A stretch of 64,000 nt of DNA from Dictyostelium discoideum (taxonomy: Eukaryota), in contig CM000154.2 in the NCBI GenBank assembly GCA_000004695.1, positions 1,024,001 to 1,088,000 of the forward strand, written 5' to 3'. Positions 35,598 through 45,063 of the stretch are shown here, piece by piece; the first letter of the stretch is position 1, and the number at the start of each line of letters is the position of its first letter. Under the pieces are notes generated by a model. The model saw only the letters and a list, made by a program, of their open reading frames with translations. It searched no databases and was not told the DNA's origin. The position numbers were made by a program, and so were the translations under genes.

Positions 35598-37493
<1,896 letters not shown>

Positions 37494-38378
37494 TTTTTTT
37501 TTTTTTTGAATACTTTTATATTTATATTTTTATATGTTTTATTTATTTAATTAATTTTCTTTGTTTTGGTTTTTTTTTGTTATTTATTTTTATTATTATT
37601 GAATGTTTTAATGTTAAAAAAAAATGTATATAAAAAAAAAAAAGTGTTTATATGTGAAAAATATTTATTATATATGTATTTTTTTTTTTTATATAATTTT
37701 TATAAGAGATTTTATTTGTACACTATTATATAATATTACGATTAATTTATTATTTTTTTTTTTTTTTTTGGGAATAAATATAAAAAAAAATTAAAAAATT
37801 AAAAAATTAAAATTAAATTAAAAATCAAAAATTAAAAAAAAAAAATAAAAAAATAAAAATTAAAAATTAAAAAATAAAAATTAAAAATTAAAAAAAAAAA
37901 AAAAAAAATTAATATTTTATAAAATTCTTGTTTTTTTTGATAATCTGAAATGGTTTATTAAATATCAATACATTTTCAAATTTATTAAATAATAAATCAA
38001 TTAAATATTTATATTTATATGGTGATAGTGATTTCATTGTTTACTCATTAAAACCAATTGATGATGGCGATGATGATGGTAGAGAATTACATAAAGAATC
38101 AAGAACTATTTCATATAATCAATATTTATTTGAAAATATATTTTCATCACCATTAACATCAATTAGACATTATAGGATTACAATCAAAGAATCAAATCAA
38201 TTAAAATTCATATTTAATTTAATATTAAATAACATTAATTTATTTAATATTAAATAATATTAATAATTTTAATTAAAATTATATTCATTAATATTTGAAT
38301 TCAATCGAAACGAATTGGTTTGTGAATTTGTTAAAGAATTTAAAAATTTAATAAACAATATTTCAATACAACAAGAGC

Positions 38379-38455
<77 letters not shown>

Positions 38456-39203
38456 AAATCAAAATCGAACATGGTGAATATATTGAAGAATTAGGTAATC
38501 TCAATAATCCATATTTCACAACAGTAATAAAGAAAATGTGTAGATGTTATAAAAATAAATATATAAATAATATATAAATAAATTTAATTAAAGAAAAAAA
38601 TTAGTAGTGGTTGATAATGATGCAGCATGAGTAGTTGAAGTGTTTAGGAAAGTTGTATAGATACCAAATGGTGCGAATAATGTTGTTTAGTTTGTTGAAT
38701 TAATATATGATTGAATTTGTATACTTTTAGTATTCTACTTTTCAAATAAATTTAATAAATAATAATATAATTTATTTATTTTTATTTGTTTTTTTTTATA
38801 ATTTATTAATTTACTTTTTTATTCACTTTTTTTTTTTAATTGAAAATAATCCAATCCGTTACAACATAAAAATGTTTTTTATTTGTTTTTTTTATTTATT
38901 TTTATTTATTTTAAAATGTAATAGTAGGGCAATATATGAAATAAATAAAATGGAAATAGTAGGGCAATATAATTAATTATATTGAAGATAGTGTAATTTG
39001 AAAAAAAAAAAAAAATTGAAAAAAAAAAAATTAAAAAAAAAAAAAAAAAAACAAATATAATAAATAAATTAAAAATGATTTGGATTTTATTTATTAGCTC
39101 TTGTTGGATTAAAAATTATCCAAAGTATTAAAAATAAAAATAATTATTCTAGCATGTTTATCTAATTCTGTATATTAAATAATGTTGTAGCTACACAACA
39201 TTT

Positions 39204-39356
39204 TTAGTTAATATCGAAACTAAATATTGATACTGCACTTCCATTTTCTTTCTTTGTACCTGAATGTAATGTCCAAATTGATTTCCCAACATATCCTGTC
39301 ACAATCGGTCCTATATTATATGGGAATGATTTTGATGCTGTTAAGTTTTGTCCCAT
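39204..39356 (-). pseudogene. Isolated N-terminal exon of an SCYL1/Cex1-like (SCY1-like pseudokinase) gene with no continuation
   Basis: MGQNLTASKSFPYNIGPIVTGYVGKSIWTLHSGTKKENGSAVSIFSFDIN aligns with the human SCYL1 N-terminus (DFPFEL...[23 protein letters not shown]). It ends in TAA with no usable GT donor. Codons GGA/GGG/CCG/GTG are atypical for this genome. Confidence 0.4.
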
Positions 39357-39617
39357 TAATTTAAATATATACATTTTTTAAAAGATAAATTATTCTCTTT
39401 ATTTCTCTCTTCGTCATCTTGACTATCAGATTGTGTTGTATCAATCCACTCTGGATCCACGAACCAAAGGGTATATAAAATCTTTTTATTCTTTTGTTTT
39501 GAATTTGAATTTATTGATAATTGTTTTAAACTTTTATTTAACGGTGTATCTTCATCTATTTCTTTATCGTCGTATGCACTCTAATTATTATTATTATTAT
39601 TATTATTATTGTTGTTT

Positions 39618-39673
<56 letters not shown>

Positions 39674-39769
39674 GTTGTTGTTGTTGTTGTTGTTGTTGTT
39701 ATTACTATTATTATTATTATTATTATTATATATTTTTTTTATTTTATTTTATTTTATTTATTTTATTTT

Positions 39770-41000
39770 TTATTCATTAAGATCCATTTCATTTAATTTA
39801 GCAATATCATCTTCATAATCAGAAGCTTCTTTTTCTTCTTCTTCTTCTTTTTCTTCTTCTTCTTCTTCTTCGACAGATTCACAATCAATTTCATCCTCAT
39901 CTAAATCAGATTCAAATTCAATACTTCTTTTTATATTTTCAAAACCATTTTTTAAAAAAACTTCATTTACAGTTTCACCTTTTAAATTTTTAATTTCAAT
40001 AATATGTTTAACGACTTTATTCAACTCGCAATGTGCAGAATTGATTGACGAGTAATTTTCGACAAATTCTGGTGAACAAGAATTGATATCGTCAATTAAG
40101 GTATCAAAGAATTCATCATCAATAAAAGTGTTGAAAAGTTTTAAACAGTTTGTTTCTTTGGTATATTTATTGACCAATTTTAATATATTGGCAATGCCAT
40201 CAAAATAGTAATGAAATAGATTTGCTTGAGCTTGAGCTGTTGAATAATTCTTTTTCAAACAATCAAGACAATCATTCTGTATCAAGTTGAGCAATTGTGG
40301 ATTGGAAGCACCAGTGATAGCGTTAATGATAGCCCAGGTGATTTCACGCTTAGTGTCCATATTGATTATTGGCTTTTTACCGTTTTCAATAGCTCTTTTA
40401 AGCAAAACCTCGTCTAAGACTCTTTGAATTTGACTCGATGGACCACTGGTAATATTTGACAAACACCAATAACCCTCCTTCACCAATGAGGCTTTTGGTG
40501 ATGATAAAAATTTAGGAAACACTTTCAATACATTAGATTGTAACAAAAACTCTGTAACGTCGTCAGGACCCGAGAGCATATTACCAATGGTACGAAATCC
40601 AGGTATATATAATGCAATGACTGTTTTGATCGGATTTGAAAATGATTTCAATGATGATCTGTGCCATTCCCATCGATATGACATTGCTAAAGATCTCTTT
40701 CTCTTCCGGGGTCGACTCAGTCAAGAAACATAACGCCCACAACGCGTCTGACACGATGTCCGCCTCTTTATGCCATGTCAAGAGTAAACTCTTTATGGAT
40801 GGTAATAGTGGCTTAATGAATCTAAATGCTGGACGTGGTGTACCACGACATAGATTACTAATGGTCCAACTTATATTTGAAACTAGTGATTTCTTTGTAT
40901 GAGTTTTCAATATCTCCACCAAATGTGGTACTAGTATACCCTCGTTGAGTATACTATCTCTATGTTGTGATGAATCACATATTATCCCATTATTACTCAT
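39770..41000 (-). pseudogene. Importin-alpha-like ARM-repeat gene copy lacking the IBB and first ARM repeats, with a frameshift near 40630-40650
   Basis: NISWTISNLCRGTPRPAF, IVSDALWALCFLTE and IALYIPGFRTIGNMLSGPDD match importin-alpha ARM3-6 (NATWTLSNLCRN...ALRAIGNIVTG). There is an in-frame stop 3 codons upstream of the first Met. Two overlapping ORFs sit in different frames. Many GC-ending codons (gcg, gac, tcg, ccg, ctc). Confidence 0.5.
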
Positions 41001-41149
41001 TCGATCCGATTAAAACATTAATTTTTATAAAGTCGCCGGTTCGATTCTGTGTAAAAAATTTTATATTGTTAGGTCACAGCTCTCTGATGAGAGACTCTGA
41101 GTCTTCCAAATATCATCAATACATTAACACCAACAAGCTAACGGCACCA

Positions 41150-41262
41150 TCAACACATTAACCCATTAACCCATCAACCCATTAACACATTAACATATCA
41201 ACACACCAACACATCAACACACTAACACATTAACGCATTAACACATTAACATCATCAAATAT
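41150..41262. repeat. Degenerate 9-bp tandem array (consensus ACATTAACN / CACATCAAC), unusually C-containing for this genome
   Basis: About 12 units read directly. Non-coding in all frames. Confidence 0.7.
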
Positions 41263-41299
41263 ATGAAAGAAATGGGTAAAATGATTTTATTTATTATGT

Positions 41300-44300
<3,001 letters not shown>

Positions 44301-45063
44301 ATCATTGAGTTGAAAATTACCATTGAAACCAAATTCAATAAATTCACTTTGATAATATGTTGGAAGCTGGCCACTTGATGTGAAACATTGTTGATTTAAA
44401 CCTTTATTAATCTTTGAAAAGTCATTTCTGTTTGTATCAAAATTTATTTATTTATTTGTTTATTTATTTATTTATTCATTCATTCATTTAATTATTTATT
44501 TGTTTGTTTGTTTAATAATTTATTACCCTTTGAAATTGAAACATGAAAATAAAAAAAAAAAATGGAATAAAAAAAAAAAAAAAAAAAAAAATGGAAAAAA
44601 AAAAATTTATTTGGAAAATAAAAAAAAAAATTCAAAAAACAGAATGATTACATTCATTTTTTTTAATTTTTATACCATTTTGTGTATTTTTGAGTGTTCT
44701 ATTTATCTATACTTAATTCAATTGTTTTGGTCTTTTCAATTTTCATTTTAGTTAACTTAATTATTAAATTTAAAATTGGTGTAAAATTCTTTTTTGTTTT
44801 TTTTTTTTTTTTTTTTTTTTAATTTTCATTTTATTTTTTTAATTTTTTTTTTTTTTTTTATTTTTCATTTTATTTTATTTTTTTTATTTTTTTATTTTTC
44901 ACAACCCTGAGTTTCCTTCGCTGGAAAATTATCAAATTATTTGTGTGTGTTTTTAATTGTATAATATATGGTAGGATAGTGTGAATTTTTTTTTTTTAAT
45001 ATAAAATAAGATACAGAAAAAAAAATAATAAAAAAAAAAAAATAAAAATAAAAACCATCACAA

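Follow-up and report, generated by a model that had tools for sequence, protein, structure and literature searches.

The minus strand of a 64,000-nt stretch of Dictyostelium discoideum DNA (GenBank assembly GCA_000004695.1, contig CM000154.2, positions 1,024,001 to 1,088,000 of the forward strand; hereafter the window) carries, at 39204–41000, a block of gene pieces that a preliminary description had read as parts of an importin-alpha gene, an orphan open reading frame (ORF) and the SCYL1 gene. We conclude that this block is most probably a decaying mosaic of gene fragments, unprocessed pseudogenes that were copied as DNA from unlinked native genes into what was formerly a spacer of ~800 bp. 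The locus is neither a working gene nor foreign DNA. It has the properties of unprocessed pseudogenes, namely an intact parent, disabling lesions, signs of DNA-level copying and a neutral pattern of substitution. The lesions comprise a 7-nt insertion, a GAG-to-TAG change, the loss of one ATG, the loss of 127 N-terminal residues and the truncation of scy1 after codon 55.

Analysis of reading frames and homology confirmed the minus-strand layout given in the preliminary description: an armadillo (ARM) repeat frame, an (AAT)n run, a 74-codon ORF lacking Met and an ORF matching the SCYL1 N-terminus. Pfam recognized Arm repeats in the importin-like piece and returned no match for either of the two short pieces. 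The judgement that these are not ordinary local genes was also borne out, as they are non-functional partial copies of which intact versions exist elsewhere in the same genome.

The gene pieces and their parents

The importin-like piece, a partial copy here classed as a pseudogene, occupies 39734–40985 of the minus strand. BLASTN located its intact parent in the same genome, with 95.3% nucleotide identity over 1246 nt (E = 0). The assembly compared was GCA_054883475.1, of the AX2/AX4 laboratory lineage and probably from strain AX2-214 (PMC12745789); the window locus lies on CM142511.1 of this assembly, and the parent (P0018) is encoded on another chromosome, CM142509.1 (locus L003). The parent is DDB_G0277993 (Q54YZ3, 524 aa), an AX4 protein that is unchanged in GCA_054883475.1. 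The copy extends from residue ~128 to residue 524, followed by the stop codon (39770–39772) and ~40 nt of 3′ untranslated region (3′UTR), and the N-terminal 127 residues of the parent are missing from it. At the amino acid level it was 92% identical to Q54YZ3 over residues 128–524. Compared with the orthologue of strain ACTFIR (locus L002), the copy had an identity of 89.4%. No paper mentioning DDB_G0277993 was found in a literature search, and exact look-ups of the 304-aa, 139-aa and 949-aa window ORFs returned no recorded proteins.

The ARM-repeat frame of the copy is broken near 40610. When the copy and the two parental alleles were aligned together, a frameshifting 7-nt insertion was placed at 40604–40620 (minus strand), and the ORFs at 40581–41000 and 39770–40684 lie in different frames, in agreement with the internal frameshift noted previously. 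Two further insertions relative to the parent were found in the copy, one of 3 nt (~40931) and one of 12 nt in a GAA repeat (~39850). In protein searches, the nearest relatives formed a dictyostelid-specific family, while true importin-alpha proteins were just 26–29% identical. The IBB domain (PF01749) reported as absent from the copy is indeed absent, but not as a result of truncation: Pfam gave no match to it in the intact parent either, and only Arm and ARM_ARMC5 were found. An importin-alpha combines an IBB, ten ARM repeats and an intact ORF, a set that this frameshifted copy does not show.

The ORF lacking Met (39359–39580), which is preceded by an (AAT/AAC)n run, derives from the neighbour of the same parent. 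A second BLASTN match to the parental locus covered window positions 39770–39370 in native order and orientation, and the same was true against ACTFIR. Parental translation and alignments identified the ‘orphan ORF’ (39370–39580, minus strand) as the unique part of exon 1 of a large gene downstream of DDB_G0277993, for which there are models of 3282–3350 aa. The parental exon translates as MEDTSNENNPILN(n)...ESAYDDKE...SFKKC and is followed by an intron; homology of the copy ends at this exon 1/intron 1 border. The (AAT)n(AAC)n(AAT)n tract at 39584–39733 (minus strand), part of a tandem repeat at 39584–39779, aligned with the poly-Asn tract of the neighbour's exon 1. Between the tract and the ORF, an in-frame TAG (39581–39583, minus strand) replaces a GAG that is present in both parental alleles, and this change accounts for the apparent start of the ‘orphan ORF’. 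Save for the TAG, the orphan-ORF part was identical to the AX2 parent; it was 94.3% identical over 318 nt to the ACTFIR locus.

In the window, the poly-Asn tract is joined directly to the A-rich 3′UTR of the importin-like copy. All of the parental intergenic DNA (~450 bp in ACTFIR and ~1.7 kb in AX2) is missing, together with the ATG and the first 12 codons of the neighbour. The alignments indicate that two adjacent parental genes were copied together as DNA, one giving the importin-like piece and the other the orphan ORF, and the earlier view of three unrelated fragments does not hold for these two. A co-linear copy of two neighbouring genes argues for an origin at the DNA level. At the AX2 parental locus, ~1.2–1.5 kb of extra intergenic DNA (L003 7940–9450) was noted that is absent from ACTFIR and from the window copy; a GGTTCATTT-type minisatellite lies within it (L003 8180–8420).

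The third piece (39204–39374, minus strand) reproduces codons 1–55 of scy1, the homologue of SCYL1 (DDB0220502), and continues with K56N and a TAA; homology ends at ~39209. The N-terminus of D. discoideum Scy1 is MYIFKLMGQNLTASQSFPYNIGPIVTGYVGKSIWTLHSGTKKEDGSAVSIFSFDIKKNP (Table S2, PMC1420674), and the window ORF 39374–39204 was identical to this protein at 53 of 55 residues. The curated Scy1 protein places the ATG at 39374 (MYIFKLMGQ...), rather than at 39356 as first proposed. A HMMER scan of 1.84 billion representative proteins gave dictyostelid SCY1-family kinases as the best matches (E 2.6e-12 and 1.6e-11). SCY1 pseudokinases have a kinase-like domain and HEAT repeats; this piece has 55 codons only and no Pfam match. 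Judged by its sequence, it is scy1-homologous and not a gene.

The junction between the exon-1 copy and scy1 could be read against both parents. The parent of the exon-1 copy reads ...AAAAAATGTA|AAAAC, and the window reads ATGTATATATTTAAATTAATGGGA, coding for MYIFKLMG of Scy1. ATGTA (39370–39374, minus strand) is common to the last bases of the exon-1 copy and to the start-codon region of scy1, a microhomology of at least 5 nt. Directly after the other end of the scy1 fragment there is a near-perfect palindrome, TGTTGTGTAGCTACAACA (minus strand, 39190–39207).

The preliminary description had raised the possibility of retro-copying. In such an event, the reverse transcriptase of a retrotransposon (e.g. 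a TRE element, which targets tRNA genes) would have switched templates across mRNAs, and the chimeric product would have been inserted beside a B box. An isolated, perfect B-box consensus, GTCGCCGGTTCGATTC, is present on the plus strand at 41032–41047; the 5′ break at the importin-like copy is 47 nt away. It was the sole match to GTCNNNNGTTCRANYC in the 64 kb, where 0.04 were expected; the consensus was taken from a published study (PMC3159450). No tRNA gene was found beside it by ARAGORN or Rfam. On its sequence, the B box could be a TFIIIC site, or the relic of a tRNA gene or of a retroelement landing pad. A weaker ATTCGATCC was noted near it, at 40999–41007.

In several respects the block resembles LINE chimeric retrocopies and TRE5-A integrations (PMC3159450). 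Its coding fragments have a single common orientation, the importin-like piece is 5′-truncated and ends ~40 nt past the stop in A8 followed by (AAT)n, the exon-1 piece ends at an exon/intron border, and it is the 5′ end of the block that is turned towards the B box, matching the TRE5-A orientation rule. However, two genomic neighbours in their native order and orientation would be a ~1-in-10^4 coincidence for independent mRNAs, and no GT...AG pair by which the missing intergenic DNA might have been spliced out was seen at its borders. The scy1 and exon-1 pieces come from the 5′ rather than the 3′ parts of their genes, and an ependymin-like fragment elsewhere in the same insert (described below) retains ~130 bp of 5′ flank. 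The distance of 47 bp does not suit TRE5-A, which integrates ~50 bp upstream of tRNA genes and 114–127 bp upstream of isolated B boxes (PMC3159450). No TRE module, 3′ or other, and no reverse-transcriptase remnant was seen. There is no clear poly(A) tail; the A8 plus (AAT)n after the importin-like 3′UTR is indistinguishable from the (AAT)n tract of the neighbour itself. DDB_G0277993 has two introns, both located 5′ of the segment that was copied, and no parental intron position falls inside the copied span, so that intron loss is uninformative as a test. The D. discoideum genome has been reported to be without processed pseudogenes (PMC3159450). We found no positive evidence of retro-copying and consider an RNA-mediated chimera very unlikely, the co-linearity of adjacent genes favouring an origin at the DNA level.

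Decay, age and codon usage

Changes were polarized using the allele of ACTFIR (L002), a divergent D. discoideum strain, as the outgroup. The copy branch had 28 substitutions, distributed 11:9:8 over the three codon positions, of which 20 were nonsynonymous and eight synonymous. The parent branch had 10 changes, six of them at third codon positions. Substitutions on the copy being blind to codon position, the copy is not under selection as a protein; this pattern is the signature of a pseudogene. That the copy is 95.3% identical to the AX2 parent and only 89.4% identical to the ACTFIR allele suggests that the duplication is younger than the split of the AX2 and ACTFIR lineages.

An automated gene model of 481 aa in the annotation of GCA_054883475.1 coincides exactly with the block (39204–41000). 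That the pipeline called a single gene across it, and that the insert adjoins two promoters, so that transcription is possible, might suggest a genuine spliced chimeric gene. Such a gene would have to splice round the 7-nt frameshift, which lies inside a conserved PGFRTIGNMLSG ARM motif, and to skip both the native stop codon and the TAG. Reading an intron in place of the frameshift was rejected, as any choice of GT...AG deletes the conserved PGFRTIGNMLSG motif. The lack of codon-position bias on the copy branch, with 20 of 28 substitutions nonsynonymous, also speaks against a gene, and no protein matching the copy was present in AX4-derived protein collections. A spliced chimeric gene is therefore extremely improbable. 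We infer that the 481-aa model is an artefact in which the defects are hidden inside invented introns.

This situation has a close precedent. Most Dictyostelium kinase pseudogenes arose by DNA duplication, and in gene predictions their defects were masked by spurious introns (PMC1420674). Like the 15 D. discoideum kinase pseudogenes of that study, the pieces in the window are DNA-level copies with frameshifts and stops, from parents of up to ~90% or higher identity, and automated models hide their defects in bogus introns. They differ in that short fragments of several unlinked genes lie here in one intergenic insert, and in that one copied segment spans two neighbouring genes. The main text of that study does not describe this scy1 fragment as one of its 15 kinase pseudogenes (PMC1420674).

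All three pieces had been thought to share GC-shifted codon usage, in a region of ~38–40% local GC, and relics of a foreign segment had been suggested. The GC content at third codon positions (GC3) was 0.395 in the 5′ part of the importin-like piece and 0.24 in its 3′ part, as compared with 0.08–0.20 in 18 long ORFs of the window. The shift was thus confirmed for the importin-like piece, but the orphan ORF (0.189) and the SCYL1 piece (0.196) have normal values. Likewise, a local GC of 38.5% was found only in 40614–41000, the remainder of the block having 26–32%. The unusual codons belong to DDB_G0277993 itself, and occur also in ACTFIR and Dictyostelium firmibasis: in 40-codon windows, a GC3 island in the parent reaches 0.60 in AX2 (L003 6650–7300), 0.80 in ACTFIR and ~0.3–0.40 in D. 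firmibasis. The genes flanking the parent have GC3 values of 0.08–0.18, and the synteny of the ETF gene, the ARM gene and the large gene is kept at the three loci compared (L002, L003, L009). On these comparisons, the GC-rich codons are inherited from the native parent, and they are confined to the importin-like piece. The parental island might reflect biased gene conversion or overlapping constraint.

GC-rich codons in 40614–41000, rich for this genome, were the point in favour of horizontally acquired DNA, and the use of Nanopore reads in the assembly might point to an artefact. With the GC3 island ancestral in a native parent, across Dictyostelium species and in conserved synteny, no argument is left for a foreign origin, and every piece of the block has a native parent. 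A chimeric read would be ~100% identical to its source, whereas the copy has at least 38 substitutions and four indels. Both foreign DNA and assembly artefact are refuted by the present data, and we give them next to no credence. Codon usage here shows that an unusual native gene was copied and does not point to foreign DNA.

The insert and the probable formation of the mosaic

The block is the terminal ~1.8 kb of a patchwork of ~6.8 kb (37950–44790) that holds every fragment catalogued. The patchwork lies in the spacer between two head-to-head genes, an MIT-domain gene on the minus strand (35598–37493) and a 1447-aa gene on the plus strand from 45058. This spacer is 7.56 kb in the window and ~800 bp at the syntenic locus of Dictyostelium citrinum (L004). 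The alignment with D. citrinum stops at window position ~44794 on one side and resumes at ~37950 on the other, with nothing matching between, indicating that the insert at ~37950–44790 is specific to the D. discoideum lineage. The D. citrinum orthologue was reached by a homology search with the flanking MIT gene; the same search, which was swamped by poly-Asn words, returned no D. discoideum orthologues. When the block was compared with the remainder of the 64-kb window, the matches were all of low complexity and no parent was found. Beyond the block, the insert contains a Sec16 fragment, a weak FH2 fragment, an 8-bp minisatellite, the ependymin-like fragment and the isolated B box, and simple repeats adjoin several of the fragment borders.

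A lineage-specific insert built of several unlinked gene fragments might also be produced by a DNA transposon resembling Pack-MULEs or Helitrons, the whole 6.8 kb then being one element, and capture by an element had been proposed for the block. In line with this possibility, the ependymin-like piece (44213–44637) is dispersed, with an identical truncation point in other strains, and has DIRS-like neighbours in one of them. However, inverted or direct repeats at the borders of the insert were confined to low-complexity A/T runs and microsatellites, and no terminal repeats were found. In the ORFs scanned, Pfam revealed no transposase, reverse-transcriptase or recombinase domain. No target-site duplication was recognizable in the borders, which are A/T-rich; element termini were likewise not found, in searches not aimed specifically at those of the Helitron type. 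Among the other loci fetched, the ependymin-like piece alone recurs, and not the rest of the block. Capture by an element is thus conceivable but unsupported by terminal structure or protein domains, and we regard a single 6.8-kb transposon as highly improbable.

One segment from another chromosome, reaching from the middle of an exon of DDB_G0277993 to the end of the neighbour's exon 1, was copied as a unit, and the first 55 codons of scy1 are joined to the exon-1 copy via the ATGTA microhomology. The fragments were probably pasted in during chromosome-break repair or replicative template switching, and the joins were probably made where there was a short microhomology or one of the many A-rich and (AAT)n tracts. 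Later slippage between the A-rich 3′UTR and the (AAT)n tract may have removed the parental intergenic DNA from the copy.

Insertions of this sort have counterparts in other systems. Filler DNA, templated insertions and products of microhomology-mediated break-induced replication (MMBIR) or fork stalling and template switching (FoSTeS) likewise consist of short unlinked segments brought together at one site, with joins at microhomologies or simple repeats and no element termini; in the present case the single junction checked is that at ATGTA. Mosaic pseudogenes formed where segmental duplications meet, such as human pericentromeric duplicon mosaics, also juxtapose partial segments of different loci and yield chimeric, mostly dead models. 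Their pieces measure tens of kb, as compared with hundreds of bp to 2 kb here in an AT-rich genome of ~34 Mb, and the site here is a promoter-sharing spacer, not a pericentromere. Pack-MULE and Helitron captures resemble the insert in carrying multiple gene fragments in one lineage-specific unit, and differ from it in that here no terminal inverted repeats or target-site duplication were found and the block was not multi-copy in the loci inspected.

Some observations weigh against the proposed DNA-level mosaic. The exon-1 copy has one change in ~210 nt and the adjoining importin-like copy ~3%, a difference with a Poisson probability of ~0.01–0.03; this unevenness is unlike the prediction of one event followed by uniform decay. 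All identifiable coding fragments are co-oriented, for which the chance is ~0.06 with five independent units, and to that extent the insert shows slightly more order than would be expected from random capture. That the exon-1 piece ends at an intron border, and the importin-like piece ~40 nt past the stop in an A-rich run, would also fit an RNA intermediate. A single junction is readable against both parents, with a microhomology that is short (at least 5 nt), and no parents were found for the Sec16 fragment, the formin fragment or the non-coding parts.

The insert might be the product of an unrecognized gene-fragment-capturing process of Dictyostelium rather than passive repair debris; we consider this unlikely. 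In one form of such a process, a retroelement that targets tRNA genes would have landed at the isolated B box and switched templates during reverse transcription. The result would be the first retrocopy of chimeric type in a genome from which processed pseudogenes are said to be absent. Alternatively, it could involve a mobile composite that spreads gene pieces, as hinted by the fixed truncation point of the ependymin-like fragment.

As a DNA-level mosaic, the locus is a known kind of object, in an arrangement that is tidy and somewhat unusual for a compact genome. D. discoideum has a compact genome with poorly documented pseudogenes (PMC1420674). This spacer, which expanded from ~800 bp to 7.6 kb as pieces of five or more unlinked genes were added, provides a compact example of ectopic DNA copying, and a good locus for strain comparisons of how such patchworks arise. 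No major question is opened by it, and nothing points to function. The consequence for annotation is more direct. Four automated gene models (481, 102, 504 and 161 aa) lie entirely within the insert (window 39204–44740, corresponding to L001 2754–8290). All four are probably stitched together from pseudogene fragments and microsatellite-encoded homopolymers, and as probable pseudogene mosaics they should not be counted as genes.

Other features of the insert

Scans for tRNA genes and Rfam families gave no real match, and a CUGAUGAG-like motif (~41075–41100) near the B box was considered as a hammerhead and ruled out by Rfam. A (CATTAACA)13 minisatellite follows at 41148–41251, between the importin-like and Sec16 fragments. 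The Sec16-type gene fragment (41580–41817, minus strand) is frameshifted; it matched Pfam PF12931 with 37.9 bits against a cut-off of 22, covers only positions 1–77 of the 298 of TPR_Sec16, and is flanked by (AAT)n tracts. A short formin FH2-like fragment at 43112–43270 (minus strand) is weak, its match to PF02181 (19.5 bits, E 5.8e-4) being below the Pfam cut-off.

The ependymin-like fragment (PF25544; 44213–44637, minus strand) is a dispersed repeat that consists of 5′ flank and the first ~86 codons. It recurs in other strains and genomes with the identical truncation point (44213), and one copy adjoins DIRS-like genes. Copies were found at L006 6231–6658 and 11995–12296, two inverted copies ~5 kb apart, and at L008 10672–11034, and the fragment is fused to the ends of gene models P0022–P0024. 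The P0023 locus (L006) was rejected as the syntenic locus of ACTFIR, since only the ependymin-like repeat is in common. A joint search with the SCYL1, Sec16, formin, ependymin-like and orphan pieces, spaced by X, returned the ependymin-like family only, despite the ~95% parent of the orphan piece.

At the opposite end of the insert, a plus-strand open frame of 102 codons (KYLYLYGDSDFIVYSLKPIDDGDDDGRELH...) was noted at 37949–38254. It gave no Pfam match, and may represent a further gene fragment, oriented oppositely to the others.

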